Below are positions 24,751 through 56,242 of a DNA stretch of 64,000 nt, in pieces. The position numbers were made by a program, and so were the translations under genes. Each line of letters begins with the position of its first letter. The stretch's first letter is position 1. The notes beneath the pieces are model-generated. The model was not told the origin of the DNA, did not search any database, and worked only from the letters and a program-made list of their open reading frames with translations. The DNA comes from Gemmatimonadales bacterium (GTDB taxonomy: Bacteria; Gemmatimonadota; Gemmatimonadetes; Gemmatimonadales; GWC2-71-9): assembly GCA_041741375.1 (NCBI GenBank), contig JBGSKF010000143.1:18633-82632 (forward strand), given 5' to 3'.

Positions 24751-24840
24751 GCTGGGCGAATGTGATTCGCCCCTACCGCCCCTGGGCGAATGTGATTCGC
24801 CCCTACCGCCCCTGGGCGAATGTGATTCGCCCCTACACCG
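24751..24840. repeat. 30-bp tandem repeat x3, each with the hairpin gggcgaatgtgattcgccc
   Basis: Three contiguous units (g/c)ctgggcgaatgtgattcgcccctac(c/a)(g/c)c(c/g). The last unit contains the VapC stop codon. Confidence 0.9.
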
Positions 24841-25246
24841 GCATGATCACGGGTATCCGCTGCCGGCGGTTCCGGCGATAAATGGCGAAGTCTCGATCGA
24901 GGGTGACGACCACGCTGTCCCCGTCGAGTTCACTCATCCGGACCAGGCAGGCATCGGCGAGTGACATCGGCACCGAGGCGTACCGCGCCATCAGGGCGCG
25001 CAGGGCGGGAATCTCCGCGGACATCGAGAACACAGGCTCGATCACCCGGTGCTCGAGCAGGGCGAGCACGGCGTCCTGTCCACCCGGGAAGCGCCGCAGG
25101 AGAAAGCAGGTTTCCGACAGGACGGCCTCGCAGGTGCCGAGCGGCGGTTCGATGGTGTCGAACACCTCGCGCGCCCAGCGGTGATGCCGGTCGCGACGGT
25201 TCAGCAGCGCGACCAGAGGACCGGTGTCGACCAGGACATGGCTCAC
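24833..25246 (-). CDS. vapC: PIN-domain toxin (VapC-like), copy 1
   Basis: ORF 24833..25246. MSHVLVDTGPLVALL... with acidic residues in a PIN arrangement. 4-nt overlap with the antitoxin. Confidence 0.85.
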   Translation of the reverse strand: MSHVLVDTGPLVALLNRRDRHHRWAREVFDTIEPPLGTCEAVLSETCFLLRRFPGGQDAVLALLEHRVIEPVFSMSAEIPALRALMARYASVPMSLADACLVRMSELDGDSVVVTLDRDFAIYRRNRRQRIPVIMPV

Positions 25247-25482
25247 GTACCGTAGCCGGACAAGTGCCTGGGGTTGGTGGAGAGATCCTGGGGTCCCTCG
25301 ATGGTCTCGGCGACCTCATCCGTGATGGAGGTCACCGATCGGGCGGGGCAAGCAGTGAAGGCCACCAGAGCCTCGCGTACCAGGCTGGAGCGGCTGGTGT
25401 TCCTCTGCTGCGCCAGGTCGGTCAGCAGCTCGTCGAGCCCGGGAGGGAGCTTGAAGGAGACGGTGCGCATCGGTTTCGGCAT
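25243..25482 (-). CDS. ribbon-helix-helix (CopG-like) antitoxin, copy 1
   Basis: ORF 25243..25608 from ATG 25482. MPKPMRTVSFKLPPGLDELLTDLAQQRNTSRSSLVREAL. Confidence 0.8.
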   Translation of the reverse strand: MPKPMRTVSFKLPPGLDELLTDLAQQRNTSRSSLVREALVAFTACPARSVTSITDEVAETIEGPQDLSTNPRHLSGYGT

Positions 25483-25513
25483 GGTATTACCTTTCGTACA
25501 TAATCGTAATACC
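25483..25513 (-). promoter_or_regulatory. inverted repeat abutting the antitoxin start (candidate operator), copy 1
   Basis: ggtattac (25483-25490) and gtaatacc (25506-25513) with a 15-nt spacer. The arms are conserved in copy 2. Confidence 0.45.
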
Positions 25514-25759
25514 ACCAAGTGGACAGTCAAGACTCCTTCCCCACGTCTGTACCATCCTGCCCTCTGTACCTCTGCGGCGAACCCCCTCATGATGGACGAA
25601 TCAACCACAGAGACACAGAGAACACAGAGGGTACGTCAGGCAGGCCAGAGCCATCGCCTGCGCCAGTGCTCTCTGTGTCTCCGTGGTGGACCCACTTACG
25701 GCGAGGGGTGTGGGGCTTCGTGCCTTCGTGGCTTCGTGTGAAGGATGTTGCCCCTACAC

Positions 25760-25819
25760 GCTGGGCGAATGTGATTCGCCCCTACCGCCCCTGGGCGAAT
25801 GTGATTCGCCCCTACACCG
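25760..25819. repeat. 30-bp tandem repeat x2 (same unit as 24751)
   Basis: Two units. The last overlaps the VapC copy 2 stop. Confidence 0.9.
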
Positions 25820-26225
25820 GCATGATCACGGGTATCCGCTGCCGGCGGTTCCGGCGATAAATGGCGAAGTCCCGATCGAGGGTGACGACCACGCTGTCCC
25901 CCTCGAGTTCGCTCATCCGGACCAGGCAGGCATCGGCGAGCGACATCGGCACCGAGGCGTACCTCGCCATCAGGGTGCGCAGTTCGGGAATCTCGGCGGA
26001 CATCGAGAACGCCGGCTCGATCACCCGGTGCTCGAGCAGGGCGAGCACGGCATCCTGTCCGCCCGGGAACCGGCGGAGGAGGAAGCAGGCTTCCGACAGG
26101 ACGGCCTCGCAGGTGCCGAGCGGCGGTTCGATGGTGTCGAACACCTCGCGCGCCCACCGGTGATGCCGGTCCCGACGATTCAGCAGGGCGACCAGCGGAC
26201 CGGTGTCGACGAGGACATGGGTCAC
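25812..26225 (-). CDS. vapC: PIN-domain toxin (VapC-like), copy 2
   Basis: ORF 25812..26225. Differs from copy 1 at 6 of 137 residues. Confidence 0.85.
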   Translation of the reverse strand: MTHVLVDTGPLVALLNRRDRHHRWAREVFDTIEPPLGTCEAVLSEACFLLRRFPGGQDAVLALLEHRVIEPAFSMSAEIPELRTLMARYASVPMSLADACLVRMSELEGDSVVVTLDRDFAIYRRNRRQRIPVIMPV

Positions 26226-26461
26226 CTGCCGTAGCCGGACAGGTGCCTGGGGTGGATGGAGAGATCCGGGGGTCCCTCGATGGTCCCGGCGACCTGATCC
26301 GTGATGGAGGTTACCGATCGCGTGGGACGTGCGGTGAAGGCCACCAGAGCCTCGCGCACCAGACTGGAGCGGCTGGTGTTCCTCTGCTGCGCCAGTTCTG
26401 TCAGCAGCTCGTCGAGCCCGGGAGGGAGCTTGAAGGAGACGGTGCGCATTGGTTTCGGCAT
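26222..26461 (-). CDS. ribbon-helix-helix antitoxin, copy 2
   Basis: ORF 26222..26539 from ATG 26461. Differs from copy 1 at 9 of 79 residues. Confidence 0.8.
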   Translation of the reverse strand: MPKPMRTVSFKLPPGLDELLTELAQQRNTSRSSLVREALVAFTARPTRSVTSITDQVAGTIEGPPDLSIHPRHLSGYGR

Positions 26462-26492
26462 GGTATTACCTCTTGTACAAGAACGTAATACC
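26462..26492 (-). promoter_or_regulatory. inverted repeat abutting the antitoxin start (candidate operator), copy 2
   Basis: ggtattac (26462-26469) and gtaatacc (26485-26492). The spacer contains the palindrome cttgtacaag. Confidence 0.45.
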
Positions 26493-26559
26493 AACAAGCG
26501 GGCGGTCAACCCTTTCCCCCTGCCCCGACCCTCCCACACCTCGGGCGAATGTAATTCAC

Positions 26560-26625: not shown

Positions 26626-27579
26626 CGGGGTGTCGGCGCGCCGGAGAAAATCCCGGACCAAGCCGTAGATCGCCTCGGGGTTGTCATTCTCTGTTGCATG
26701 CCCCGCGCCGGGGATCACCGCGAACTGGGCGCCCGGCACGAGCCGGGAGAACTCCTCCGTCGCGGCCGGGGTCGCCTCGTCGAATTCGCCGGTGACGAAC
26801 AGGGCCGGCACCCGGATGCTTCGGAGCCAGTCGGTCCCATCGAAGGTTTTGAGCGTACCGGTCGAGGTGAACTCGCTCGGGCCCCACATGTAGTTGTAGA
26901 CAAAGCTCCCGCTCCGCTGACGGGCGCTGTCGGCGTCGGCGGCGAATCGCGGCGGCGTCCGGCGCAGGAACTGCGCGTAGTAGGCCTCCATCGCCGCCTG
27001 ATACTCCGGGTGGTCGGTGGTGCCCGCCGCCTCGTGCTCGGCGATGTGCCGTTGCATCGAGTCCGGGAGAAACCGGATCAGCGAGTCGGCGTCATGCTCC
27101 CAGCGGGCCGTGGTGACCAGCGGACTGGAGAAGGTGACGCTGCGGACTCCGGTGGGATTGGTGCCCATGTAGGCCTGGAGCAGCATGGCGCCCCAGGAAC
27201 GGCCGTAGAGGTGAACCTCCGTGAGGCCCAGGGAGTCCCGCAGGGCCTGCAGCTCCTGCACGTAGCGATCCACGGTGTAGAGGGTGGTGTCGGTGGGGTG
27301 ATCCGACTTGCCCGATCCCAGCTGGTCGTACCGGATCACCGGTCGGTCGTCGCCCAGGATGGCCCAGCCCTTGAGGCCGAAACTGGAACTGCCCGGGCCG
27401 CCATGGATCACGACGAGCGGGGTGCCGGGACCGTTCCCCATCCGGGCCCAGTAGATCCGGCCGCCGGGTACGGTGATGAATCCCTCGTCCGCGGGAGGGA
27501 GGGGGGGGACCGGAGGCGCCGCCGTGCACGAGAGCAGAACGGCGGCAAGGGAGAGGGGGAGCATTGGGCTCGATCGCAC
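26623..27579 (-). CDS. proline-iminopeptidase-family alpha/beta hydrolase, lipoprotein
   Basis: ORF 26623..27579. MRSSPMLPLSLAAVLLSC, HGGPGSSS, nucleophile elbow GRSWG, C-terminal GAGH. Confidence 0.8.
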   Translation of the reverse strand: MRSSPMLPLSLAAVLLSCTAAPPVPPLPPADEGFITVPGGRIYWARMGNGPGTPLVVIHGGPGSSSFGLKGWAILGDDRPVIRYDQLGSGKSDHPTDTTLYTVDRYVQELQALRDSLGLTEVHLYGRSWGAMLLQAYMGTNPTGVRSVTFSSPLVTTARWEHDADSLIRFLPDSMQRHIAEHEAAGTTDHPEYQAAMEAYYAQFLRRTPPRFAADADSARQRSGSFVYNYMWGPSEFTSTGTLKTFDGTDWLRSIRVPALFVTGEFDEATPAATEEFSRLVPGAQFAVIPGAGHATENDNPEAIYGLVRDFLRRADTP

Positions 27580-28007: not shown

Positions 28008-28706
28008 CTATCTTCGCCCAGCCCCCAGCCCCCAGCCCCCAGCCCCCAGCCCCCGCCGGACGGCCGCCTCCAATGGCCACTCCCACCCCGGCCGTTGGTT
28101 GTAGTCACGGAGCGATACTCCAAGTCCGCGAACCAGGTCGCGGAGGTGGGTGGCGGCGGTTAACGCTTCCTCGGCAAGAGCGTCGACGGTGGGACGGCAC
28201 CGTGGCAGGGTGGCCACCCGGTAAAGGCGGACCAGATCGCTGACCCGGCGGTGGAGCACCTTGGGCACGATCCGCTGGAGGTTGCGGAGGCTGAGACCCT
28301 CCGGAATCGGATGGGGTGAGGTGGTGACAGCCTCGCAGACGATGTCCTCCAGGATCGGGTTTCCAAGACGGGCGGCGAGCCATGCCCCCATTCGCTCTGG
28401 CGACAAGCGAGGCCGTGCGTTGACGGCGGCCACGATCTCAGCCGGGGAGATGGAGGTCCCGGTAGGAACCAGTGCCAGCTGTCGCTCGCGGAAGTCGAGT
28501 GGAGGGGAAAGAGGTTCAGGCCCATTTGCCGGGATGGCGGAAACGACAGGGACCATGAGAGGGAGGCTGGCGATTCCGTCGTGCAGGTAGGTCGTTGCAA
28601 TGCTGGAAGAGGGTGAGAGGATCCCGATCGTGCCGAGTGGATGATCGGCGACCGGCGCACCGACAGCAATGGTGTCGTAGGGTGGTGGCACATGATACGG
28701 TCTCAT
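28008..28706 (-). CDS. hypothetical protein (C-terminus encoded by the repeat array)
   Basis: ORF 28008..28706. No recognised domain. Ends ...RRGLGAGGWGLGAGRR inside the CCCCAGC array. Confidence 0.3.
   Translation of the reverse strand: MRPYHVPPPYDTIAVGAPVADHPLGTIGILSPSSSIATTYLHDGIASLPLMVPVVSAIPANGPEPLSPPLDFRERQLALVPTGTSISPAEIVAAVNARPRLSPERMGAWLAARLGNPILEDIVCEAVTTSPHPIPEGLSLRNLQRIVPKVLHRRVSDLVRLYRVATLPRCRPTVDALAEEALTAATHLRDLVRGLGVSLRDYNQRPGWEWPLEAAVRRGLGAGGWGLGAGRR
28017..28055. repeat. CCCCAGC heptad tandem array
   Basis: cccagcccccagcccccagcccccagcccccagccccc. Confidence 0.85.
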
Positions 28707-29272
28707 CTTGGCATCCCTCCGCGCTTAACCAGTTAAACATCACCATCCTCCAGCCCCAATCTATGCCCTTCTGCAAAGATACTCACAAGAGCGTAGTCCG
28801 CAAGACGGCTCCGTGCCCTTGGGCTGCAGTGTTCTGGAAGTCAGCTTACTGCGATTGTCGGGAGGTCACGTTACAGACGGAGAAGTGTGCCCCTGAAAGC
28901 GTTGCCGTCGGCAAAGCATGACGACAACGACCGGGCAAATCGTTGTCGAAGAACCCGACCAGGGGTCATTCCGGGGGCGTTCCTGGAATCTCCAGGCGGA
29001 GGACCAGTATCCGCTCCTCGAGTGGAACCTTCGCCGAGAAGCGGTATGCATCGTCGTTGACCCGGATGTCGAGAGGGAGGCCAACCGGAACGGAACAGAG
29101 ATGGAAGCGGCCCTCCGCACCGACTGTGATCTCGGCAGTCCGCATGCTCGATTTCACTCCCACCCCTTCGCCGACGACGAAGGCGCTGGCCTGGTTCCAG
29201 GAGATTGTCATGGAGAGGGGTGTCGAGTCCCCCGGGTTGATCACCTGGCCCAGGATTCCGCCCACCCTTTCA

Positions 29273-30748
29273 TCACGGGCAATGCGGGCTCCGCACTGTT
29301 CCCGTGAGCCATGTCGTGGAGGAGGGTGTTGCCAGATCGAGGCGGGCTGTCCCGCCCGGTTGCACGGACACCTCGTGACGGGAAGGAATCCCGAACACCT
29401 GCAGGCGAGGATGCGACACACGGACACGCATCTGCCCGCTCGTGGCGATGCTCAGGGAAAACCCCCCGTTCGCGTCTGTGACGACCCCGTTGGCGCCCCC
29501 TTCCAGGGCCACCTCGACTCCACTGAGGCCGGTACCGGCGACGGAATCGTGAATGACCCCGGCAATCGTGCCGCTACTCACCAACGCAGGGCGCCGTCTC
29601 CCCTGAGCATTCACCAGCTCCGCACTTCCGGTCTGTTCAACCACTCCTTGCTGTAGAAAACGTCTTTGGAGATCAGGAGACACTCTGTCCAGGTCGACGT
29701 CCCCGAACCGCGTGACCCAGCGACGCCCCGATCCGGACATTCTCCTGACGTTGTCGCTCGGCGTTGGCCCCACCATCACCACCACCCTGGGAATCCGGAT
29801 CATCCAGTCGTTCACGATCCAGCCAAGGCCCTCGACCCTCTGAAAGCGCACAAAGCCGTCGGCGTGGAGACCATCCCAGGGTGGTGGCACGTTGACAAAC
29901 TTGAACTCCACTTCCTGGAGAAGATTCTCGACGGCGTCCAGCCAGAGAGTCCCCGTGATGTCAGGGACGGTGCGCCCAGGGGTGGGCATGAACTGCAACC
30001 CGACACGATGGATCCCACCGGTCCGGTCCTCGGTCAGCGCAAAGCAGTGAGTCTCGAGAAAGCCATCGTGGAGAAGGATTCTCGCGTCGGGTGCATAGAA
30101 CATGCGACTGTCCCCCTCCTCCCGGGAGAACCCCTCGCTCATCAGGGTGTCGACGGGAAGGGTATGGAAGGGAGCTCCCGTGCCTCGTCGCACATACGAG
30201 GTGTCCTCCCGCACCAGGCGGCCCCCGGCGTCCCGTTCCCGCTCGTACCCGGTCACCTGCAGAACCGGGCGGAACTGTTGTCGCGTCAGAACCGCGGACG
30301 TGAGGGCCTTCCGTGCCTCCTCCCAGACGGCACTGATGTCCCGGCGGGCCACTCCTCCGGTCGTGCACTTCGATTCCGCCTGGACGGTCACCTCGGGGAG
30401 CGTGAATCGAGTCATCGGCAGGGTGAGGCGGAGAGTCACGGTGCGGCCCGCGAAGAGTTCCACCGGGTCGGAGGTGCGCCCGACGAAGCCGATGCGGTCC
30501 CCGCGGACCAGGTATCGGCCCGGTTGCGGGGCGGAAAGCGTGACCTGACCGACCTGGTCGGTCAGTCCCTGGGCGACCCTGACCCCTGACACCAGGAGCA
30601 GGGAGACCAGGCTGCTGGCGGCCGGGTTGCCCGATCCCTCTTCGACCACGATGACGCGGATGGTCTGGGCCGTCACGGGGCTCAGTTCCAGTGTCAATGC
30701 AAAGAGCCCGACAAGTGCCGTGCGATATCTCCAGGTCTTCAGCATCAT
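29273..30748 (-). CDS. CarboxypepD_reg-like multi-domain secreted protein (probably continues to 28966 after a frameshift)
   Basis: ORF 29273..30841 from ATG 30748. Signal MMLKTWRYRTALVGLFALTLELSPVTAQ. Contains IRVIVVEEGSGNPAASSLVSL and GVIHDSVAGTGLSGVEVAL...TDANGGFSL. Confidence 0.6.
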   Translation of the reverse strand: MMLKTWRYRTALVGLFALTLELSPVTAQTIRVIVVEEGSGNPAASSLVSLLLVSGVRVAQGLTDQVGQVTLSAPQPGRYLVRGDRIGFVGRTSDPVELFAGRTVTLRLTLPMTRFTLPEVTVQAESKCTTGGVARRDISAVWEEARKALTSAVLTRQQFRPVLQVTGYERERDAGGRLVREDTSYVRRGTGAPFHTLPVDTLMSEGFSREEGDSRMFYAPDARILLHDGFLETHCFALTEDRTGGIHRVGLQFMPTPGRTVPDITGTLWLDAVENLLQEVEFKFVNVPPPWDGLHADGFVRFQRVEGLGWIVNDWMIRIPRVVVMVGPTPSDNVRRMSGSGRRWVTRFGDVDLDRVSPDLQRRFLQQGVVEQTGSAELVNAQGRRRPALVSSGTIAGVIHDSVAGTGLSGVEVALEGGANGVVTDANGGFSLSIATSGQMRVRVSHPRLQVFGIPSRHEVSVQPGGTARLDLATPSSTTWLTGTVRSPHCP

Positions 30749-31461
30749 GGTCACCCAGGCGGAACAGTGACCCCACCCGCACCGATCCAAGCGGGTGGAA
30801 CGCTCGTGGGCACTGCGGAAAGGCGCCACGAGGATGTCCATCTGATATCAGATACCATAATAGAGAGATTGTGGGAGTCGCGCCAGCACGAATCTGCGCC
30901 AGAAGCGCAGCCCTGGCTCAGCCCACCCCTGACCATCCCCCAGCTCGATGTGGGGGTAAAGCTGACGGGATTCGGTGGGAAGTGGCGTCGAATCGGCCGC
31001 TGGGTGAACCCGACAGCCCGGCGGTCCGCCGCGTACCTCGGTGTGTCCGTGATTCTCAGGCAGCGACACTCTCCTGGCGCGGATCCGTGCTGGCGGCACT
31101 TGGCTGGAAGCGTTAGCGTGATGGGCGGGCATAGCGAACGGACGGCGGAACTCAGTCGAGCACCTCGATAGGGATGGAACTGGACTCGGCGTCTGCTGCT
31201 TGCGAGAGAGAAGGATGTCAGCCCATCTCAGGGAGCAGCGCCGTTCTTGGCGCGAATCCGTGCTGGCGGCACTCAACCTGAAGCGTTAGCGTATTAGCCG
31301 TCGCCAAGCAGGGGAATCGCACCCTGGGGTCCGGCCTTGTGAGGTGGAGGGTTATCGTGACTCATATGGACAGCGCTGCACGAATTGCAACCAGCCAACG
31401 CCCACGGTTTTCTCAGGGCTGGCACGGGGTCAAGAGAGGTCCCTTGGCGCGTAGTCGTGTA

Positions 31462-31914
31462 TTGGATCATCGAACGTGGCCGTGGGTCCGACTGTTGCTG
31501 GTGATTGGCTCCACAATGGTCGGGTGCTCGTCGAACGACATCGAACGGTTGCCACTGTCGGACGGTGCGCGGTTGAGTGACCTTACTTCGGGCGACAACG
31601 TGGCGATCCTCGTAATCGACCCGGCTGAGTGTGGCTCCTGCTCTCCAATTGTAACAACATGGATCCAACGGCACAGAGTGGATCCAGCGCAGGTGAAGTT
31701 GGTGTTGAGTCGGGCTCCCACGAGTCGAGAGCGCATCGATCTGAAACTGCAGCACATATCGGAAGACGGGGTGTTGAAGGATGGACTCGCTCGTCGGCTG
31801 ATCCTTGGATCAGGTGGGAGACGGCATCGCCCGGTGGCCATTGTCATGGAGAATGGCACCGCGGTGACCAGGTCGGACTTGGCCAGTGCACCTTGGGAAT
31901 CTGGAGGGCAATGA
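31462..31914 (+). CDS. thioredoxin-fold-like lipoprotein with CxxC
   Basis: ORF 31339..31914. TTG at 31462 gives (M)DHRTWPWVRLLLVIGSTMVGC (lipobox). AILVIDPAECGSCSP resembles a redoxin active site. Confidence 0.4.
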   Translation: MDHRTWPWVRLLLVIGSTMVGCSSNDIERLPLSDGARLSDLTSGDNVAILVIDPAECGSCSPIVTTWIQRHRVDPAQVKLVLSRAPTSRERIDLKLQHISEDGVLKDGLARRLILGSGGRRHRPVAIVMENGTAVTRSDLASAPWESGGQ

Positions 31915-31984
31915 CCGCGATTCGTTAGGTGCCAGCAGGTTGTGTGCCACGGCGGCATGCAAGAACCCTAGCAAGGAGAGCAGG

Positions 31985-32174
31985 ATGCGTCGTATCGTGC
32001 TGTTGACGGGTCTTTTTGGCCATCGGGTTCCTTGGAACCCTGTCCACCCGCACCTCGGCGGCCAGCGGAGGGCAGTACTGGGCTGATCTCTTCGGTTTCC
32101 CTGACTGCGTCTACAGTTGCGGGAACAATTCGGGGCACGACAAGTGCACGTGCTCCGAACCTCTCAACCCGTGA
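31985..32174 (+). CDS. small secreted four-cysteine peptide, readable only across a 1-nt shift in a T5 run
   Basis: aaggagag Shine-Dalgarno 5 nt before ATG 31985 (MRRIVLLTGL...). Dropping one T of 32013-32017 joins it to ...LAIGFLGTLSTRTSAASGGQYWADLFGFPDCVYSCGNNSGHDKCTCSEPLNP, stop at 32172-32174. Confidence 0.35.
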
Positions 32175-32210
32175 CGGTGAGTGCGGGTTGAGGAGTCGAC
32201 CCGCTGGAGT

Positions 32211-32248
32211 GCTTGTCCGGGGGCTGTGCGCATAACCCCCGGACAAGC
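32211..32248 (+). terminator. 13-bp perfect stem hairpin downstream of the small peptide ORF
   Basis: gcttgtccggggg (32211-32223), 12-nt loop, cccccggacaagc (32236-32248). No T-tract. Confidence 0.45.
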
Positions 32249-32367
32249 ATCGTCGTTGGAGAGAGGTTCGGCGGCGAGGTCGCGCCCGGGGGTCGTGTAG
32301 AAGTCCCCAGTGAACATGTAGAAGTTAGTCATCACCCGCCATCCCATGGAGTGACAATTACCTACCT

Positions 32368-33485
32368 ATGAAACAACCACATATCCTTCTGCTCGTCCTG
32401 GCCCTCGTGTCGACTTCTTGTATCGCCCCCTCAGGGTCGGACTCCAACTCCGGATCCGAAGAAGGTGCACCCGCACTCTCTCTCGTTGACTCCACCATTC
32501 TGCTCCTTCCAGACTCGGTACCCTGGGCAGGTTCGTCCATGTGGCGCGGGATGGAAGGAGACGGACCTACCTGAGTGATGTGGCATCGGGCAGGGTGATC
32601 CGGTTCAGCCGCAATGGCAATCTGGAGGCCATCTGGGGAAGGCGAGGATCTGGCCCAGGGGAATACAGGAGCATAGGGATGGTACACCCCCTCCCTGGCG
32701 ATACCCTTGCCGCCGTTTTCGATGAGGCATCCGCTCGTATTGACGTGCTTAGTCTCGATGATGGGGCGCTCCGGCGGACTCTGAGCGTGCCATTCCGAAG
32801 CACAGGAAAACAATGGACTTGGAAGGGAGATCGTGCTGTCTTCAGTCTTCCAGGCAGTCCATCGCTGATCGGAGTGTGGCATGCCGGACAGGACTCAACG
32901 GAGGTGTTGGGGATGGTACCGCCGGAGGTCATGGCGGGCTTGCCAACCTACATGCAGTACGGGCACTTGGAGCTGATCCCGTGGAGCGACGGGTTCCTTG
33001 CCCAGGTGCCCACCATGCCGGGTCTTCACCAGCTCGATGCCGCTGGCCTTGTCGTGGGTCATGTGCCTCTCCCGGCCGTGAAAAGGCGCGGACAGCCAAC
33101 GGACCTCCTGTTGCGCCATCAGGAAAAGGAATCCGCGGGACAACCGTTTGCGTACATCGGATCTGCAGCTGCCACCCTGGGCCATCTTTCCAGCGGAGAG
33201 GTGGCCGTAGTCCAGGTGGATATTGATGTAGAGAACGGCCCGCAGCGACAGGAGTTCACGAACCTGCGCTATTACGTCTCTATCGTCTCGGCCGACCTGC
33301 AACGAACATGTGCCGATGCCCTCGTCCCCTTCACCAGTGACTCTCCATTCCCAATCCCCCACCTGACTGGGGATACCTTGGTTGCTTTGGCTAGGGTAGT
33401 AAGCCCGAACGACAGCGTGCATACCATCGTGTACCGGTACGCGATCAGCTCCAACGGGTGCCGGTGGATGCCGAATCAAAGGTAG
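32368..33485 (+). pseudogene. six-bladed beta-propeller family lipoprotein, frameshifted after the signal peptide
   Basis: Lipoprotein signal MKQPHILLLVLALVSTSC is in ORF 32368..32574. The propeller body (GSGPGEYRSIG...) is in ORF 32541..33485. The frames differ by one nt. Confidence 0.55.
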
Positions 33486-34102
33486 GTCTGGACGGGGACC
33501 CTCCTCAGCGAACTGTTCCCGCCTCCGTCGTGGCGAAGGTGTGATGATGGATGCATGGCGCCATCCTCCCGGTCCAAGGACTCACCACCATCAGCGCCCA
33601 AGGAAGATGCGTCTTGAGTGTACACCGGAGCGTCACTCCGGCGAAGGCCACGTAGCGCAAAGTGCGGTGATGCCGGAAGTGCTGTGCGCTGCGCCCGCAG
33701 ATGCCACTACGCTCGGTCGCCATCCGAATTGCTAGCGGGTGGCGGCCGGGTCGCGTACGAGGCGGATGACCTCCAGGCTCACTCGACCCAGAAGTACGCG
33801 TGCCTTTGGAACCGTGTTGTTGTGATCGCACTCCAGGTATGGCTGGATTGGGAATGGCAATCGACGGGAGGGCTGGGACGCGGAAAGGTGGATGCCACAA
33901 GGAACTGCTGGGCGTCGGTGTACTCCTCTCCGGAGAGCTGGACGCCGCTCATGCGTCGTGGATTGCCAAGGTCTCGTTAGGTCTTGTAGGGGCGGCGACG
34001 GTTCCGTAAGAAACGTTGTATCTTGCCCGGCGGGCAGTGCAATGCGGTCGGCTGTGGGCTGTGTGGCTACCGGACGAGCGCGATGTTCCAAGGAGAGACG
34101 AC

Positions 34103-34940
34103 ATGGGTTGGAAGCGGCACGGTCTTATTGGCCCGATGAACGGCTCTCGATGGGGGGCGGGGACGAGCCTGATGGCGCTGGTTCTGGGCGTCCCTCCGCT
34201 CCATGCCCAGGGAGGTCTGAGAGGCAAGGTGGTTGACTCCGAAGGCGTGCGCCTCCCGGGAGTGGAAGTGGTGCTGCCGGAGGTGGGGCGTCAGGCGATG
34301 ACCGACAGTTCGGGCCTGAACCGCGTCATGGATATTCGAAAAGGCCGGTTCGAGGTCCTGTTCCGGCGGGTGGGGTACCAGCCCCTCCGGTTGCTGGTGA
34401 GTTTCACCGGGGGTTCAGGCGATGCCGTAGTGAATGTCGAGATGTCGCCGGAGGCCGTGGTGTTGCCGGAGGTGGAGACCAAGGCCCGGGGGCCGGAGGA
34501 GGTGCCCGTGAAGCTTCGGGAATGGGCCCGGCGCCGGCAGTTCAACGTGGGCGGGAAGTTCTGGGACGATTCGCTGTTGCGAACCCAGGAGTACAGACAG
34601 CTCCCGGAAGTGCTCCATGCCGTTCCCGGTGTCAGGATCATCCGGGCGATGGGTGGCCGGTATCTGGCCATCGGGGGGGGGGCGGGGAGCGAACGGCGTG
34701 CGAGGGGGTATGGATCCGAGGATTCCACCCGCGTGCTACGTCGAAGTATATCTCGATGGGGCGCGGCTCTCGTCGGCAGGAGTTCCCGTTAATCTCGACA
34801 ATATCCCGGTCCAGCAGATCGCCGCCATGGAGTTGTATCGCTCTGCCTCCGAGATGCCCGTCGAATTCAACTCCCCGGGAGCATCCTGTGGCGTCCTTGC
34901 CATCTGGACCCGGGTGGAAAGTGAGAAGGATGAAGGTTGA
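34103..34940 (+). pseudogene. CarboxypepD_reg plus plug-like secreted protein, interrupted at a G10 tract
   Basis: aaggagag before ATG 34103. N-part is in ORF 34016..34792 (GLRGKVVDSEGVRLPGVEVVL). C-part is in ORF 34617..34940 (CYVEVYLDGARL...CGVLAIWTR). The switch is at the G10 run 34673-34682. Confidence 0.6.
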
Positions 34941-35034
34941 AGGGAGAGGGGGGATCGGGCCCTCGCGATGAGGGGATTGTGGCTATCGCCTTACCGTCCA
35001 CCGCCCATAGCCAAATCGCCGGTAACGGTGGTCC

Positions 35035-35135
35035 CCCCACTCCCCACTCCCTATAGCTCCCTATCGCATATTCCCTACCGCCTACTCCCTACCGCCTACT
35101 CCCTACCGCCTACTCCCTACCGCCTACCCCTACCC
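35035..35135. repeat. CCCTAC-type array including CTACTCCCTACCGC x4
   Basis: ...ttccctaccgcctactccctaccgcctactccctaccgcctactccctaccgcctacccctacccctca. Abuts the ADOP stop codon. Confidence 0.85.
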
Positions 35136-35136
35136 C

Positions 35137-37584
35137 TCACCCGCCCCGCATCACCATCGCCGGATCCACCCGCGCAGCACGCAGCGCCGGAAGCCAGCAC
35201 GCCACGAGCCCCACCGTCACCATTACCAGTGCTACGAGGATCAGTGTCACCGGATCGTGCGGGGCCACGCCGAACAGGAGACCGCGGATGATGCGGGTCG
35301 CGAACAGCGCCCCGGCGATCCCCAGCACCAGGCCGATGCCGAGCAGTGTGCCACCCTCGCGGATCACCATTCCCTGCACCCGGCTCTGGTCGGCGCCCAG
35401 GCTCATCCGGATCCCGATCTCCAGGGTCCGGGCGCTCACCGAGAATGCCAGCACCCCGGCGATGCCGACGGCGGCGATGAGCACCGCCAGGAGTCCGAAG
35501 GCGCCGATGAGGGCGGCGTTCAGGCGGCGGGGCGCCACGCTCTGGCCCTTGATCTCCGACAGGGTCAGCACGTTCTCGATCGGATCCCGGGGGGCGATGT
35601 TCCGCACCAGCCGGGTCGCAGCCGCTCCCAGAGCGGACGCATCCTGCTCGGAGCGGATCACCAGGCCGCCGGCGAACACCACCTCCTGGGCAAAGGGCTG
35701 GAACAGAACGGGGCGTGGCTCGACATCGAGTCCTCCGTCCCGCGTGTCGCCCACCACGCCAACCACCGTGCGCCAGTCGCCCGTCACCGGAATGAATCGC
35801 AGCACGTCCCCGGTCCACGCCACCCGCTGACCGATCGGGTCCCGGTCCCCGAAGAGCCGTTTGCTCAGCGTCTCGTTGAGGATCACCACCAGGGCGCTCC
35901 CCTCGATGTCGGTGGAGGTGAACTCCCGTCCCCGCAGCACCGGGATCCCGGCCGCCCGGAAATACTCGGGACTCGCCGTGCGATACTCGGCGCGCGGGAT
36001 CGCCTCGCCGACGGCCAGGGCCCGCCCTTCCGCCTTCAACTCGAGTTGGAAGTCCGAGGAGCGGAGGGGGATCACCGAACCGACTCCCACGTCGCGCACC
36101 CCGGGGATCGCGGCGATCTCGTACTTCATCCGGTCGTAGAGCGCCCTGGTGGCGTCGTTGTCTCCATCTCCGCCGCTGACCGGCACTTCCATCGTGAGGA
36201 CCTCGCTCTCGCCCCCGGTGAGACCGGTGTCCACCTCCGAGAGTCGGAGCATGGTGCGGGTCAGGAGGCCCGCTCCGGTCAGGAGGATCACGGAGACGGC
36301 GACCTGAGCCACGACAAGCGCGCGTTGGAGCCGTTGGCGGCGCAGGGTGCCGCTGGCGCGCGCCACGCCCTGGGCCATCCAGGTGCCGAGGGTTCCCTCC
36401 CGGGCGAGCCGCGGCGCGAAGGAGAGGAGGAGGGCCACGGCCACGGTCAGCACCAGGGTGAAGCCCAGGACCATGGCGTCGAGCCGGATTTCCCCGGCCC
36501 GGGGAGAAACCCGTTCCGCGAAGGCGATGAGGAGCTGCAACCCGCCCGCGGCCAGTACGAGACCCAGGACGGCGCCACCCAGGGCCAGCACCAGGTTCTC
36601 CACCAGAAGCAGGCGGCGGAGGCGGCCGGCCCCGGCCCCCAGCGCGGCCCGGATCACCAGTTCATGCTCGCGTCGCACCCCGCGCATCAGGGTCAGGTTG
36701 GCGACGTTGGCGGCGGAAATGATCATCACGAAGGCCGCGGCGCCCATCAGGAGCCAGAGGGTCAGGCGCGCGCGCTCGCCGAGCACCTCGTGGAAGGGAG
36801 TGAGGGTGACGCGGTATCCGGACGCGGCATCGTAGGCGTCGGGGTGATCGGCCTGGACCCGGGCGCGGATCGTCTCCACCTCGCTGCGGGCCTGGGGCAG
36901 CGTGGCGCCGGGAGCCAGGCGGGCGATCATCTCCGTCATCCGGTGGGTTCGGCCCGTCACCATCATGGCGCTGGTGTGGTGCTCGCTGATCACCATGTTC
37001 ATCAGCGCATCCATCCGGTTCGGGAAGGTGGGGGCAGGCTCCACCACGCCAACCACCGTCACCGCTCGTCCGTCCACCAGGATCGTCTGTCCGACGATCC
37101 CACTGTCCCCCTGGAACCGCTTCAACCAGTACTCGTGGGTCAGGACCATCACGGGAGGCACGGCGGTGCCGTCGTCTCCGTCGGTCAGCAGCCGGCCCAG
37201 GGCCGGAGCGAGGCCCATGACCTGGAAATAGTTTCCGGTGACGAGCCCGACGGTCATCCGGACCGCGTCGTTGTCCCCCTGGAGGGTGTAGGTCATGGGG
37301 GAGTACTCGGCGATCCCCCCAAGGGTACTGGCGCCTTCCCGGAAGTCGTCGATTTCGGGCACGGAGAAGAGCACGTTCTCTCCGCCCGGGCCTTCGACCG
37401 ACTGGCGGAGGTAGACCAGCCGGTCGCCGTCGCGATGGGGAAGGGGACGGAGGAGCACGCCGCGCACCACGCTGAAGATGGCGGTGTTGGCGCCGATGCC
37501 GAGCCCGAGCGTCAGGACCACGGTGAGGGTGAAGCCGTGGGCCTTGGCGAGGGAGCGCAGGGAGAAGCGGAGATCAGCGAGCAT
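35137..37584 (-). CDS. ADOP-family duplicated MacB/FtsX-like ABC permease
   Basis: ORF 35137..37584 (815 aa). MLADLRFSLRSLAKAHGFTLTVVLTLGLGIGANTAIFSVV..., two FtsX modules. Confidence 0.9.
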   Translation of the reverse strand: MLADLRFSLRSLAKAHGFTLTVVLTLGLGIGANTAIFSVVRGVLLRPLPHRDGDRLVYLRQSVEGPGGENVLFSVPEIDDFREGASTLGGIAEYSPMTYTLQGDNDAVRMTVGLVTGNYFQVMGLAPALGRLLTDGDDGTAVPPVMVLTHEYWLKRFQGDSGIVGQTILVDGRAVTVVGVVEPAPTFPNRMDALMNMVISEHHTSAMMVTGRTHRMTEMIARLAPGATLPQARSEVETIRARVQADHPDAYDAASGYRVTLTPFHEVLGERARLTLWLLMGAAAFVMIISAANVANLTLMRGVRREHELVIRAALGAGAGRLRRLLLVENLVLALGGAVLGLVLAAGGLQLLIAFAERVSPRAGEIRLDAMVLGFTLVLTVAVALLLSFAPRLAREGTLGTWMAQGVARASGTLRRQRLQRALVVAQVAVSVILLTGAGLLTRTMLRLSEVDTGLTGGESEVLTMEVPVSGGDGDNDATRALYDRMKYEIAAIPGVRDVGVGSVIPLRSSDFQLELKAEGRALAVGEAIPRAEYRTASPEYFRAAGIPVLRGREFTSTDIEGSALVVILNETLSKRLFGDRDPIGQRVAWTGDVLRFIPVTGDWRTVVGVVGDTRDGGLDVEPRPVLFQPFAQEVVFAGGLVIRSEQDASALGAAATRLVRNIAPRDPIENVLTLSEIKGQSVAPRRLNAALIGAFGLLAVLIAAVGIAGVLAFSVSARTLEIGIRMSLGADQSRVQGMVIREGGTLLGIGLVLGIAGALFATRIIRGLLFGVAPHDPVTLILVALVMVTVGLVACWLPALRAARVDPAMVMRGG

Positions 37585-39135: not shown

Positions 39136-40071
39136 TCAAACGCCGACGGTGATCGGTCCCCGTAGTGCCACATCAAGGCGTTCAATCACATCGGCTGCCG
39201 ATGTGATCTCAACAGCCCTGGTTCCGAACGCCCCCTCGGTCACGTACTTCCTGGCCCACTCCCGAGTCCTCACCAGCTCGGAATGCAGGAACACGGTACG
39301 GCCATGCTGCAGCGCAACACGGGCTTGAATTCGTGCCCCGGATGTGTCTGAGGCCTCAACGACGATGGTCGCGAGTGACAGTCCGGACATCACGACGTTC
39401 CGCATCGGAAACGTCCACTTGGTCGGAGGTTGGTCCGGTGTGAACTGCGATATCAGCGTGCCTCCGGAAGCGAGGATCTCCTCCGCGAGGGTTGCATTCT
39501 CCGCAGGGTAGAGGCGTTTGAGCCCGCTGCCGAGCACCGCACAGGTTACTCCTCCAGCCTGCAGGGTGGCACGGTGAGCTGCCGTGTCTATCCCAACAGC
39601 CAGGCCGGAGAGGATGACAAAGCCATCACTGACGAGTTGTGAAGTGATCTCCGCCGCGATTCCCAGTGCCTTCGGTCCTGCGGCACGCGCCCCGACGATG
39701 GACACAGACCGTGTTCCCAAGGCAGCAGGCAACACGCCCCGGATGAAGAGGAGCGGTGGGCGGTTGAAGACGTCGTGAAGTGGCTCGGGGTATCCACTAT
39801 CCAGCACCGTCACCGGTTCCAGTCCCTGCGCACGCCAGACGGCGAGATCCTCTCTGGCCCGTTGCAGGTCCTCCGCTGTCACGGCGCCTATGAACTGATG
39901 TACTGGCTTTGGCCAGGCAAATAACCGATCCTCCTCGGCAAGTTCGACCAGACGCAACGCCGAACCAGTATGGCCGATCAGTGCCCCGAGGTGCTCCTGG
40001 GGAACAACCCGTGCACGCTGGAGCGCCAAGGTGGCCGCAGTCTCGTCAAGTGGGAAGTCGGCCGCTACCAT
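39136..40071 (-). CDS. DprA/Smf (SLOG) family protein (ShosA-like)
   Basis: ORF 39136..40230 from ATG 40071 (ggagga Shine-Dalgarno). SIVGARAAG...SGLAVGIDTAAHRATLQAGGVTCAVLGSGLKRLYPAEN. Confidence 0.8.
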   Translation of the reverse strand: MVAADFPLDETAATLALQRARVVPQEHLGALIGHTGSALRLVELAEEDRLFAWPKPVHQFIGAVTAEDLQRAREDLAVWRAQGLEPVTVLDSGYPEPLHDVFNRPPLLFIRGVLPAALGTRSVSIVGARAAGPKALGIAAEITSQLVSDGFVILSGLAVGIDTAAHRATLQAGGVTCAVLGSGLKRLYPAENATLAEEILASGGTLISQFTPDQPPTKWTFPMRNVVMSGLSLATIVVEASDTSGARIQARVALQHGRTVFLHSELVRTREWARKYVTEGAFGTRAVEITSAADVIERLDVALRGPITVGV

Positions 40072-40211
40072 CGTTCCTCCGTGCTGGCGACTCGGGTGGC
40101 CCTGTCCATGGGGTATGAAGCAATGCACCCGAATATATACCGAAATAGCCGCTTCCGAAAGCTCCACCCTTCTGCCCCAACCCGAAACATACGAGGACTC
40201 CTTGGCCCCAT

Positions 40212-42896
40212 CTACTCCCCTCTCCCCCACTTCGCCACCAGCCCCTGCAACGTCGCCGAGGCCGTGATCTCGTCATGGGGCACCAGGAGGTAGGTCCACG
40301 GCTTCTCGCCATATCCCGCCGCAAACACGCTCGCATGCCCGCACCACTCCACCGCCGCCCGGGCCTTGGCCTGGACCTCGGGATCCTCCATCTCATTCGC
40401 CGCCTTCACCTCGATCAGCAGCTTCCGGTCGGTGGTTTCCGCAACGAAATCCGGTTCGTAGGACTGGGACTGGCCGTGGCCCCAGAAGATCCGCGGCGGC
40501 GGCCCGGCGAGCCGAGCCCACTTCACCACCTCCGGCGCGTCATCGAGCAGAACCGCCATCCGCCGCTCGGCGTCCGAATCGAACCGGGCCTCCCTGTAGA
40601 TGGACTTCCGGAAGTGCCCGAACCGCATCCCCCGGATCCGGCTCGGCGCCTGCACCGCAAACCGGACATCGCGCACCTTCTCCGCCTGGTCCGCCGTGCT
40701 CGCCTGGGGGGGAAGCTGCTCGAATCCCTTGCTGATCCGCGCCTCGTAGCCCACCGCATCCTCCCAGGCATGTTCCGCGAGCTGCGCATGCACCAGCTCC
40801 CCAATCTGGCGCTCGTAGAACTGGAGCACGTTCTTCACCGCGTCATCGTCCGGCAGGTAGCTCCGGAGCCGCGCCACCACCTGCCCCGCCAGCTTGTACA
40901 GCAGCTCGGAGTGGCTGTCATACGACACGTCGGGCCGGCCCACCAATGACCGCACCACGAAGTTCTCCAACCGCGGCTCATCCATCCGCGACGTGACACC
41001 CGAGAGCGTTTCCCGTGTGCTTTCGGAGAGGTGCTGAATCAGAATGTCGTTGTCCACCGGCTGGAAGTTGATCTTCGAGACGTCGAGCTCGAAGTCGCGG
41101 AATCCCGTTCGTACCTCCCCCTTCGGCACCACGAGGATCCGCGGGATGTCGATGTTGATCAGGCTGTAGATTTCCACCGCTTTCGACACCGGCGCGTCGA
41201 GATCCTCGGTGGAGCGGAGCGGGAGTTCCGCCTGAATTCCGGCGAGATGTTCCCGAACAGCCTGGACCAGACGGCTTCGCGGTTCATCATCGAGGAGGGA
41301 GCGGGTGGAGGGATAGTGCGCAAAGGCTGGGTGGTGAATCACCTCCAACGTGGCCCGTGCCACCTGGATGTCCTCCTCCGAGGTGAACACCGGCGGGGGA
41401 GCCTCCGGTGCGCCGTCGGTCACGGGGGGAGGGAGGAACATTGCCTGCGCGGGAGACGGCACCACCACCGCCACCCGGCCCACGGGGAGCGATTCCTCGT
41501 TCCCGATGTATACCGGCACATACCGGATCGCCGAGTCGGAACGGTTGGCCTCGTCGATGATCTCCTGGAACCGGTCGTGCGCCACGATGGTGAGCCGGTC
41601 CACCGCCGAGACACCGGTGCGCCGGCCGTAGGGGAGCCGGAGTCCCCGTCCGATGGACTGCTCCACCAGAGTGCGGCTTGTGGCGGTGCGGAGCGGCACG
41701 ATGGTGTAGAGGTTGGTGACGTCCCATCCCTCCTTCAGCATGTTCACGTGAATCACGATCTCGGTCGGTTCGGCGGGGTCCTCCACCTTGAGGAGCCGCT
41801 CGACGTTCTCCTCCCTCTCGTCCCCGCGGAGCGTCGAGTGCACCGTAATGACCTTGGCCGCATACTGGCCGCCGAAGAACGCCTCTCCCTTGATCCGCGC
41901 CTCGAGTTCCGCGGCGTGGGTCGTGTCCTTTGCCACCACGAGCATGAACGGCTTGACCTGCGGCTTCCCCTCCCGGATGGCGTAGGTCTGCAGCTCGGCC
42001 TTCACCGCCTCATGGATCCGGACCCCGTCCTCCAGCTTGAGCAGTTCCAGTTGCTCCTCGGTATACACCCCGGCGTCGAAGTTCTCCCGGGTGGCCACGG
42101 CAGGCTCCTTCACGAAGCCGTCGCGGAGAGCGTGGGTCAAGGGGTAGGAATAGATCACGTTCTTGAACGGCACCGGGGGCCGGGCGCCCCGTTCGATCTG
42201 CGGCGTGGCGGTGACCTCGAGCCCCAGGACCGGCTTGAGCTCATTGATGGCGTTCATTCCGGCGGCGGCGCGGTAGCGGTGGGACTCATCCATGAGCAGC
42301 ACGAGATCGGGGAGCTTGGAGAGGTACTCGAAGTAGCTCTCCCCGATGTACTCGTTGAGTCGCTTGACCCGGGGGGCGCTCCCACCCCGTACCTCGGTGT
42401 TGATCTTGGAGATGTTGAAGAGGTTGATGTTCACATCCCCCTCGCCGAAGAGATCGCCGCGCAGCGCCCGGCCGCTCTCCCAGTTGTCCCCGGTGATGAG
42501 TTCCGGCGGGTGGGTGGCGAACTCGGCGAGCCCCTGGAACACGTATTTCGGGGTGTTCGGGGTGAAGTCCGCGATCAGCTTGTTGTAGATGGTGAGGTTG
42601 GGGGCCAGCACGAAGAAGTGCCGGATCCCCTTGACCCGCCGGAGCCAGGCGATGAAGGCGCCCATGAGCCGAGTCTTGCCGACCCCGGTGGCGAGGGCGA
42701 AGCAGAGGGAGGGGAAGTCGCGTTCGAAGTCCTGCACCGAGGGGTACGCGGCGCTGACCCGTTCCAAGGCCGCGGCGACGTCCTGGTTCTTGGTGAGGGG
42801 GATCAGTTCGGTCGCGGCGGCGAGGATCTCCAGCGCCTCCCGCTGGGGCGCGCGGAGCGAGAGCCGTCCGGCCACTGCCGCGACTTCCCGGCTCAT
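40212..42896 (-). CDS. res: type III restriction enzyme Res subunit (DEAD/DEAH helicase-nuclease)
   Basis: ORF 40212..42896. Motif I ATGVGKT, motif II LLMDESHRY, helicase C region. 4-nt overlap with mod. Confidence 0.85.
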   Translation of the reverse strand: MSREVAAVAGRLSLRAPQREALEILAAATELIPLTKNQDVAAALERVSAAYPSVQDFERDFPSLCFALATGVGKTRLMGAFIAWLRRVKGIRHFFVLAPNLTIYNKLIADFTPNTPKYVFQGLAEFATHPPELITGDNWESGRALRGDLFGEGDVNINLFNISKINTEVRGGSAPRVKRLNEYIGESYFEYLSKLPDLVLLMDESHRYRAAAGMNAINELKPVLGLEVTATPQIERGARPPVPFKNVIYSYPLTHALRDGFVKEPAVATRENFDAGVYTEEQLELLKLEDGVRIHEAVKAELQTYAIREGKPQVKPFMLVVAKDTTHAAELEARIKGEAFFGGQYAAKVITVHSTLRGDEREENVERLLKVEDPAEPTEIVIHVNMLKEGWDVTNLYTIVPLRTATSRTLVEQSIGRGLRLPYGRRTGVSAVDRLTIVAHDRFQEIIDEANRSDSAIRYVPVYIGNEESLPVGRVAVVVPSPAQAMFLPPPVTDGAPEAPPPVFTSEEDIQVARATLEVIHHPAFAHYPSTRSLLDDEPRSRLVQAVREHLAGIQAELPLRSTEDLDAPVSKAVEIYSLINIDIPRILVVPKGEVRTGFRDFELDVSKINFQPVDNDILIQHLSESTRETLSGVTSRMDEPRLENFVVRSLVGRPDVSYDSHSELLYKLAGQVVARLRSYLPDDDAVKNVLQFYERQIGELVHAQLAEHAWEDAVGYEARISKGFEQLPPQASTADQAEKVRDVRFAVQAPSRIRGMRFGHFRKSIYREARFDSDAERRMAVLLDDAPEVVKWARLAGPPPRIFWGHGQSQSYEPDFVAETTDRKLLIEVKAANEMEDPEVQAKARAAVEWCGHASVFAAGYGEKPWTYLLVPHDEITASATLQGLVAKWGRGE

Positions 42897-44515
42897 GTTT
42901 CGTTCTCCGCGAAGATCTCCGCCTGGTCCGGAACGACCCGCGGGGCATCGGGGAGGTCCCGGATCTCCAGGGAGTAGTCATCCCGGCCCCACTCGCACTT
43001 GGAGAGCACCGCCTGGGGAATCTTCTTGAGGGTCAGGTTGGGCCATTGGCTCGCCTTCCCCTTGAACGCGCCGCAGCAGACCAGCAGCGACCGCTCGGGC
43101 CCCACCTCCTCGCTCAACTGGTCGAGTTGCGCCTTGGTGAGGGTCTGGGTGGTGACGTAGAGGAAGTCCCGTTCGGTGGACTGCCCCTGCTGCCACCACC
43201 GCTCCTCGCTCGGCGCGTAGCGGAACCCTTCCAGCTTGGCCACCGCCTCTGCAAGCATCGCGGCGTTGTATTCCTTCGACACCACCCAGTTGCCCCAGCG
43301 GTCCTGTTCCATGAGGGAGGGGGCGAGCCGGTAGTAGCGGAACCCACCGCCGCCCTTCCACTTCACCGCCTCGGTAATTCCGCCCGGATCCTCGCCGTCG
43401 ATCACCTTGCGGAGGCGGGGGATGATGTGGGTGTGACAGTGTTCTCCGAGCTCGATCATGATCCAGCGGCGTCCCATCTTGTGGGCCACGGCGCCGGTGG
43501 TGCCGGAACCGGCGAAGGAGTCGAGGACGAGGTCGCCACGATTCGATGCGATCTGAAGTATTCGGGAAATGAGCCTCTCTGGCTTGGGGGTAAGAAACGC
43601 CTCCTCTTTGCCAAACAGCTCGTGGATCTCCTTCCGGGCTTCGTCCGTATGCCCGACCTCCTCATGTGGCCACCATGTCCACGGCACCATTCCTTCGACT
43701 TCGTCGAGAAAGCGGATCACATTGGGCTGGCTGTTATTGTCCTTGCCAAAGTAGATACGACCCGTGGCGAGTAGTTTCTGGTACTCAGTCTCGACCATTG
43801 ACCAACATCGACCCTCCGGCGGCAGATGCTCTTTCCCGCCGGGTGCTGTGATTACATACATCTGATTCGGTCGATACCCCTGTGCTGTCATCGGGGTCGG
43901 CCGCCAGCGCCCACGAATGTTGCCATCGGGATTCTTGTATACCCTCGCCTGTGCCTCGGTTATCGGAACTCGATTCCTTGTCGCCTTAAACCTGCTGGTG
44001 TCCCTGGCGTACACCAAGACATAGTCGTGCGCGTCCCCGATTGCTTCTCGGTTTTCGCGCGAATAGCGCTTTTGCCAAATGATGTTGGCGATGAACTGGC
44101 TTCGTCCGAAGATCTCATCACACAACACCTTCAGGTAGTGCGCCTCGTTGTCGTCGATGGTGATCCAGAGGGAACCGTCCTCGGAGAGGAGGTTCCGGAT
44201 GATCTCCAGCCGGTCCCGCATCAGGGAGAGCCAGAGGGAGTGTTCCAGGCCGTCGTCGTAGTGGGTGAAGGCGCTGCCGGTATTGTAGGGCGGGTCGATG
44301 AAGACGCACTTCACCTTGCCGGTGAATTCCTGTTCCAGGGCCTTGAGGGCCAGGAGATTGTCGCCGAAGATGAGGCGGTTGTCGAAGAGGTCGTGGTCGG
44401 TGACCCGGTGGGGGGCGTGATGGGACTTGGCCGGGTCCTCGATGAGGATCCGGGGTTCGAGGCGGGGGCGCTGGCCCTTGCCGACCCAGGTGAGTTCAAG
44501 GCGGGTGCGAGCCAT
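42893..44515 (-). CDS. mod: type III DNA methyltransferase Mod subunit (beta-class N6A/N4C)
   Basis: ORF 42893..44515. Catalytic VFIDPPYNTG precedes the AdoMet motif VLDSFAGSGTTG. Confidence 0.9.
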   Translation of the reverse strand: MARTRLELTWVGKGQRPRLEPRILIEDPAKSHHAPHRVTDHDLFDNRLIFGDNLLALKALEQEFTGKVKCVFIDPPYNTGSAFTHYDDGLEHSLWLSLMRDRLEIIRNLLSEDGSLWITIDDNEAHYLKVLCDEIFGRSQFIANIIWQKRYSRENREAIGDAHDYVLVYARDTSRFKATRNRVPITEAQARVYKNPDGNIRGRWRPTPMTAQGYRPNQMYVITAPGGKEHLPPEGRCWSMVETEYQKLLATGRIYFGKDNNSQPNVIRFLDEVEGMVPWTWWPHEEVGHTDEARKEIHELFGKEEAFLTPKPERLISRILQIASNRGDLVLDSFAGSGTTGAVAHKMGRRWIMIELGEHCHTHIIPRLRKVIDGEDPGGITEAVKWKGGGGFRYYRLAPSLMEQDRWGNWVVSKEYNAAMLAEAVAKLEGFRYAPSEERWWQQGQSTERDFLYVTTQTLTKAQLDQLSEEVGPERSLLVCCGAFKGKASQWPNLTLKKIPQAVLSKCEWGRDDYSLEIRDLPDAPRVVPDQAEIFAENET

Positions 44516-47931: not shown

Positions 47932-48254
47932 TCCCCGTACTCGTGACTGGAGGGATGCCTTCAAGGTAACGGGAACGACCGAGTCGAGCAAGCGGGAAAT
48001 GAGAACATAAACTGTTTTGTTGCAAGACGTTACGATGGTTGGCATCGGATCCGCTCCTGTCGAGCCACGAGAATGGCGCCTCAGTTGTGACGTGATCCCT
48101 AAAGTGTGGTTGCGTAGCACGAATCATGCTGTGAAGGATAGGAGATAGCACTTTCAGGGGACATTGCGCACATTTTCGGCACAAAAAGCACATTGCGGTT
48201 GCTATATTGTTCTCCAGGTGCTGGATGTCACTCTCCCGAAGCCCAGGAAGAACG

Positions 48255-55891: not shown

Positions 55892-56242
55892 GATCAGATC
55901 GTGACTCACAGGCTGGCGGCCTGGCCGCAGAGCGGCCGCTTCACTGTACTGGTTCCCATGGCTGAAGCCGCAGGCCATCTCCTGTGGCCCAACCCCAGAT
56001 CCTGTCCTAATACTAGAGTCATGATTGTGATCTTATTCTGATGTGTTGCTCTATCTGGTTGGATTGCAATGCTTTATGCCATGCAACGATCTTTCTGACC
56101 ACTGTGCACCATGAAATACTTTCACGGTGATAGGCGAGCCCAGTAGCCCGCAGGGCTCCGGTGGCCAGGCGGGTAGGGGAACCAGTCTGGGCAGAATTCA
56201 CTCTGCGTCGTCGGTGTCATCAGTGGTTTCTTCCGGGGGGGG

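Follow-up and report, generated by a model that had tools for sequence, protein, structure and literature searches.

In Mycobacterium tuberculosis, the 7C tract of glpK is the site of a reversible homopolymer frameshift, and both variants of the tract and their reversion have been seen in isolates and linked to phenotype. In Neisseria meningitidis, hmbR is ON at tract lengths of 9, 12 and 15 and is otherwise OFF (PMC3786947). We analyzed a 64,000-nucleotide stretch of DNA from a soil Gemmatimonadales bacterium (hereafter the window), in which a run of exactly ten consecutive G residues (34673-34682, plus strand), directly followed by CGGGG, lies within a gene for a secreted protein related to TonB-dependent receptors. 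According to the ORF list and the translations, this gene starts at 34103 and stops at 34940, and its reading frame switches inside the G10 tract. The tract is the longest homopolymer of the window and its sole run of at least nine identical bases; the next-longest are two G8 runs (27501-27508 and 56235-56242, the latter of which appears to be intergenic) and a C8 run (12111-12118).

On the plus strand, a Shine-Dalgarno-like sequence, AAGGAGAG (AAGGAG), can be read at 34090-34097, 6 nt before the ATG, and the start of the gene aligns with that of its ortholog P0001. The ORF list, the translation and Pfam define a 5′ part in the original frame (codons 1-190, 34103-34672), which reads MGWKRHG...GLRGKVVDSEGVRLPGVEVVL...GGRYLAIGGG up to the tract. 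It encodes a signal peptide (approximately aa 1-35, ending in ...PPLHA/QG), a CarbopepD_reg_2 domain (aa 40-124, nt 34220-34474; PF13715, E=2.6e-8) and, from aa 159 (nt 34577), the first half of a Plug domain (PF07715, E=4.1e-5). The 3′ part (34683-34940, plus strand), delimited by translation and tblastn, is displaced by +1. Its frame reads RGANGVRGGMDPRIPPACYVEVYLDGARL...CGVLAIWTR; the part encodes RGANGVRGG...CYVEVYLDG...CGVLAIWTRVESEKDEG, includes the peptide PACYVEVYLDGAR, and completes the Plug domain with its latter half and both conserved Cys residues, followed by a stop codon at 34938-34940. In this frame, tblastn gave 88% identity to the ortholog. With ten G residues, the readable ORF is shorter (34103-34792, plus strand): beyond the tract it continues as a 36-aa out-of-frame tail as far as a TAA codon at 34790-34792, giving a product of 229 aa that is identical to the database protein P0002. 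Promoter and terminator scans around the gene returned nothing useful.

The tract comprises GGG GGG GGG, which encodes three Gly residues, and an additional G, and the single-base gap in the alignment with the intact ortholog falls within it. A tract of nine G would open an ORF of 278 aa and a tract of twelve G an ORF of 279 aa, whereas G8, G10, G11 and G13 are all out of frame; the repeat therefore sets the reading frame of the gene, as the repeat of a contingency locus does. The original prediction, which had proposed a CarboxypepD_reg and plug-like gene that changes frame at the G10 run and would be repaired at G9 or G12, was thus confirmed on each of these points by the Pfam matches, by the ORFs and the position of the ortholog gap, and by the lengths of the repaired ORFs.

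In the repaired protein, the Pfam Plug match (aa 159-250) bridges the frameshift junction with a score of 24.5 bits, above the cut-off of 23.9, and accompanies the PF13715/PF13620 matches of the N-terminal part. No beta-barrel (PF00593) was matched after the plug, the protein ending at aa 278, approximately 20 residues past it, and the TIGR04056 (SusC/RagA) score of 20 bits is far below the cut-off of 368. Structural comparisons were made with the AlphaFold model of the ortholog P0001, which is 88% identical (mean pLDDT of 84). Foldseek matched its N-terminal beta-sandwich to transthyretin-like carboxypeptidase domains and to the SusC NTE (9hfj), and aligned its C-terminal domain with the plugs of CirA, BtuB and TbpA. 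The Gly run lies directly after strand 185-190 of the model and opens the part of the plug that is modelled with the lowest confidence, a loop spanning residues 191-212, at which the family alignments are rich in indels. We conclude that the gene product is a secreted protein of approximately 278 aa that combines a signal peptide, a CarboxypepD_reg domain resembling the NTE of SusC, and a TonB-receptor-type plug without a barrel.

Forty-eight homologs were found, each of approximately 250-310 aa, and none bears a functional name except 'carboxypeptidase regulatory-like domain-containing protein'. All of the homologs that could be traced come from Gemmatimonadota MAGs. The two Cys residues and the C-terminal CGVLAIWTR are nearly invariant across the family, and an A[TIV]GGGR motif is widely kept at the protein level. 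A scan of genome contigs returned 13 loci, none of them from the window's own species and 11 of them from a single MAG, Gemmatimonadales Bin_42 (L004-L014), which gave approximately 18 tblastn hits and in which the copies often stand two or three in tandem. The family is large, paralogous and restricted to Gemmatimonadota. Our literature searches found nothing on carboxypeptidase-regulatory-like proteins of Gemmatimonadota and nothing on homopolymer phase variation in MAGs.

In the closest ortholog (87% nucleotide and 88% amino acid identity), the homologous positions read ATC GGG GGA GGC CGC GGA, in frame and with the run interrupted; this ortholog is known from three records (L002, L003 and L021) of one lineage, the sole orthologous lineage compared. 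At approximately 20 paralog and ortholog loci, the homologous motif is written with mixed Gly codons and the longest G run is 6, so that the tract is not conserved across the one orthologous lineage and the approximately 20 paralog loci. In 18 confidently assigned genes of the window, GGG makes up 35% of the Gly codons and CGG 47% of the Arg codons. Given this usage of GGG, chance would make a G9 run of approximately 4% of Gly-Gly-Gly motifs. In the same 18 genes, there are nine further runs of at least three Gly residues, and all of them contain non-GGG codons.

These observations are best explained by a slippage mutation that happened recently, in a family with frequently inactivated members. 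It is a third option besides the consensus error and the classic contingency switch between which the original prediction had left the choice; the error is weakened by the evidence considered below, and the switch is not supported by the comparison of tract length among relatives that had been proposed as a check. With modest confidence, we favor the reading that a G9 run underwent a real +1 G slippage, recently, and that this knocked out one copy of a high-turnover family. The conserved Gly-Gly-Gly-Arg motif opens the variable loop of the plug; in this lineage, synonymous drift would have made all three Gly codons GGG, followed by CGG, creating a G9 run; and one extra G, most likely gained through slippage during replication, would then have turned G9 into G10. 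The plug would thereby lose its C-terminal half, with both Cys residues and the CGVLAIWTR end, leaving the 229-aa product, which is probably non-functional. The gene would then be a further example of how often genes are inactivated in this family and in this variable, defence-island-like region. Because a G10 run is intrinsically prone to slippage, reversion to G9 would be mechanistically possible.

The divergence from the ortholog bears on the age of the break. Upstream of the tract, the dN/dS ratio was 0.18-0.24; downstream of it, in the repaired frame, it was 0.088, with 23 synonymous and 8 non-synonymous differences, and no secondary stop or indel was found in the 86 codons downstream of the tract. 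The low downstream ratio indicates that the break is recent, and together with the lack of further lesions it led us to reject an old pseudogene. A very recent loss and a gene that is still used, through switching or recoding, fit the same ratio equally well.

A second frameshifted gene lies 5.4 kb upstream of the focal gene. It encodes a CarboxypepD_reg protein of the 594-aa type (28966-30748, minus strand), and its frameshift was recognized by tblastn in two frames and by DNA alignment. The break, at approximately 29301-29306, consists of an extra G (ACGGGAAC versus GC-GGAAC) at a GG/GGG site, and the dN/dS ratio past the break is 0.22. This gene is intact in L002 and L003, and in L002, L003 and L021 it stands in synteny with the focal gene; given this synteny in the related lineage, the two genes may have been lost together. 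Judging from the sequence comparisons, neither of the two is an old pseudogene; both breaks would be recent relative to a dS of approximately 0.3-0.5, or alternatively both genes may still be used part-time.

Lesions were also found in other copies of the family. In GCA_017973855.1, one copy (L017 3570-3600; also JGI 3300029891) has a frameshift at the equivalent motif: it reads AAG GGGGGGG CC GAAAAAG, with seven G, where eight would restore KGGGRKRGVPRAPGVPGACYAEVYLDG as in the intact relative P0016, and from this protein comparison a change from an ancestral G8 to G7 seems probable. In another paralog of GCA_017973855.1 (L022 3060-3075), an in-frame TAA, present in the NCBI, ENA and JGI assemblies, replaces a Tyr codon just before GGR. 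A Bin_42 paralog (L012 2100-2135) carries an additional A in an A3 run, within GTAAAAGCTG. The remainder of the gene is intact in each of these three copies. Inactivated copies are common in the family and arise by ordinary routes.

The surroundings of the two genes differ from those in the related lineage. The 3.2 kb between them (30905-34079) are not homologous to the 2 kb that separate them in L002 (2066-4061); the former show a weak coding signal and contain ORFs of 191 and 314 aa without a Pfam match, the latter contain genes of 364 and 160 aa, and the downstream flanks differ too. A spacer separates the focal gene from the 3′ end of a MacB/FtsX-type permease gene (35137-37584, minus strand), and it contains a tandem repeat (35057-35134) of 5.6 copies of the 14-nt unit CTCCCTACCGCCTA, which is also readable as degenerate CCCTAC(T) heptamers over 35035-35142. 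On a larger scale, approximately 24-56 kb of the window looks like a variable defence island and is lower in GC. It includes two tandem VapBC pairs (PIN and RHH; 24833-25608 and 25812-26539), DprA (39136-40230), a type III res gene with a C-terminal match to a TnsA-like endonuclease (40212-42896), a type III mod methylase gene (42893-44515), an AAA_21 and RloB pair (48207-50254), and SNF2 helicase and Fic genes (51628-55679). A screen of the window for frameshifts by codon usage and GC3 was noisy and missed the known break at 29301; the candidates that it returned were rejected, being adjacent different genes (MBL/DUF4112, CbiQ/ABC ATPase and hydrolase/PolX).

Of the alternatives to a recent slippage mutation, the one that survives best is that the true tract is G9 (or G12), that the gene is intact, and that the extra G is a homopolymer miscall in the consensus. 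Consistent with such an error, the frame breaks exactly at the longest homopolymer of the window, dN/dS is not relaxed downstream, and the sequence is derived from a MAG for which both available assemblies may come from the same reads. However, a Logan contig of 7,077 nt (SRR28170468_151853) is 100% identical to positions 28025-35101 of the window, G10 included, and is recorded in 3 samples. Logan is a separate de Bruijn assembly of run SRR28170468, probably made from the same reads as the NCBI assembly, and the two different assemblers agree over 7 kb; the exact 229-aa product is present both in Logan and in the NCBI assembly, there on a 91-kb contig. Downstream of the focal gene, the Logan contig breaks off within the 14-nt tandem repeat, as would be expected of a short-k assembly of accurate reads; with such reads, a majority miscall at G10 would be unlikely. 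Other long runs are found in intact genes: the C8 at 12111 is inside a contiguous ABC_tran match of an ABC ATPase, the G7 runs at 8615 and 8780 are within a full-length M42 peptidase match, and the G7 at 58016 is inside an uninterrupted PolX match. These G7-C8 runs argue against a general homopolymer problem in the assembly, and thus against a consensus error. Moreover, the frameshift of the neighbouring gene, at a GG/GGG site, has no homopolymer-error context, and its extra G is likewise reproduced in the Logan contig. A miscall is therefore unlikely, although it deserves to be reckoned with. We take the G10 allele to be real and, as judged from two assemblies that probably share reads, dominant in the sampled population.

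A further alternative is that G10 is kept for stochastic on/off switching of an envelope protein among G9, G10 and G11, and that the OFF state has been caught here. Several features are those expected of such a locus. The G10 run is within the ORF of a secreted TonB-receptor-related protein, and, being in frame at 9 and 12 G, it follows the same arithmetic as hmbR of Neisseria (PMC3786947). The downstream frame is fully preserved, with a dN/dS of 0.088, and another member of the family, from a different MAG, has a homologous G run that is one base away from the in-frame length. In addition, the tract opens a flexible, length-variable loop that could tolerate an extra Gly, and the family is large and varied, as is often the case for phase-variable surface families. 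By contrast, neither the closest ortholog nor any of the paralog loci read has the tract, the G runs of the latter not exceeding 6, and the tract occupies a mid-gene position, at codons 191-193 of 278. Public assemblies yielded neither a length variant nor an in-frame allele: G10 is the sole tract length in the NCBI and Logan assemblies, and the exact G9 and G12 products and the products of the downstream ORF are absent from a collection of 15 billion proteins. The public protein collection contained no homolog closer than the 88%-identical ortholog. A search of JGI metagenomes for the flank pattern TGGCCATC N6-14 CGSGGANCGAACGSCGT revealed no strain variants, its single hit (L019) being unrelated and due to chance.

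Nor are long tracts enriched in the 64-kb window, which has one run of at least nine where shuffles predict more. Dinucleotide-preserving shuffles of the window gave a mean of 6.2 G9/C9 matches, versus 2 overlapping matches observed. Long G/C runs are thus, if anything, depleted relative to the shuffles, and the tract is statistically unremarkable, the more so as chance predicts such a tract in approximately 4% of Gly-Gly-Gly motifs. In the type III mod gene of the window, the longest G run is only G6. Finally, other members of the family have been inactivated by nonsense mutations and by indels outside repeats. Adaptive phase variation is not supported by the comparative evidence, and we consider a maintained switch at this gene distinctly unlikely.

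It is also conceivable, if quite improbable, that the Gly-Gly-Gly(-Arg) loop motif is a recurrent slippage switch in soil Gemmatimonadota and that copies flip once their run reaches at least 8 G. Under such a reading, G10 here and G7 in GCA_017973855.1 would be two independent lineages caught OFF. The copies with a run of at least 8 G at the motif, counting L017 by its probable ancestral G8, are both out of frame (2/2), which leans towards switching or towards a systematic poly-G error. To our knowledge, no phase variation has been described in Gemmatimonadota, a free-living uncultured phylum. A recurrent switch, if real, would mean stochastic, copy-by-copy expression of a large family of envelope proteins.

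Runs of identical bases can support transcriptional and ribosomal slippage, although RNA polymerase slips less readily on G runs than on A/T runs. That the G10 gene is functional through RNA-polymerase slippage with loss of one G, or through +1 ribosomal slippage of tRNA-Gly on GGG-G, is nevertheless very improbable despite the perfect preservation of the downstream frame, since orthologs and paralogs use a single frame, no stimulatory element was identified (with no Rfam match between 30800 and 35300), and the lack of conservation of the shift site in the ortholog and paralogs led us to reject a programmed frameshift.

If the focal gene is a recent slippage knock-out, as we favor, the consequence is mainly one of annotation: its two ORFs represent one frameshifted gene, and the same applies to the neighbouring CarboxypepD_reg gene. 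If mixtures of tract lengths were true of this population, the locus would be a rare case of homopolymer phase variation outside host-associated pathogens. The large, uncharacterised family of barrel-less plugs may merit attention in itself, considering its approximately 18 copies in one MAG, its tandem arrays and its frequent inactivation.

Among known systems, the poly-G phase variation of HmbR and HpuA in Neisseria is the closest textbook analogue, and the focal gene fails the test of conservation that this analogue sets. Like hmbR and hpuA, which encode TonB-dependent haemoglobin receptors, it has a poly-G tract in the ORF of an envelope protein related to TonB receptors, with the same arithmetic of lengths. 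Unlike them, its tract is lineage-specific and was seen at one length, and its protein has no barrel, whereas the Neisseria tract is conserved across isolates, with documented length polymorphism and switching; its host, moreover, is an environmental bacterium of the Gemmatimonadota that is uncultured and for which no phasome is known. The 7C tract of glpK is similar in that gain or loss of one base in a short G/C run of an ordinary gene yields a revertible loss-of-function variant, but the population and phenotype observations belong to glpK, whereas the G10 allele is known from assemblies alone. At the level of the protein, SusC/RagA-type transporters share the NTE/CarboxypepD_reg domain and the plug, in the same order and with both folds found; the focal protein differs from them in having no beta-barrel, and its two Cys residues and CGVLAIWTR end are specific to its family. 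With families that evolve by birth and death, the focal family shares its multiple copies, approximately 18 in one MAG and often in tandem, and independent lesions in different genomes that leave the rest of each sequence intact. It departs from them in that the focal lesion, being located in a slippage-prone run, could revert at an appreciable rate.
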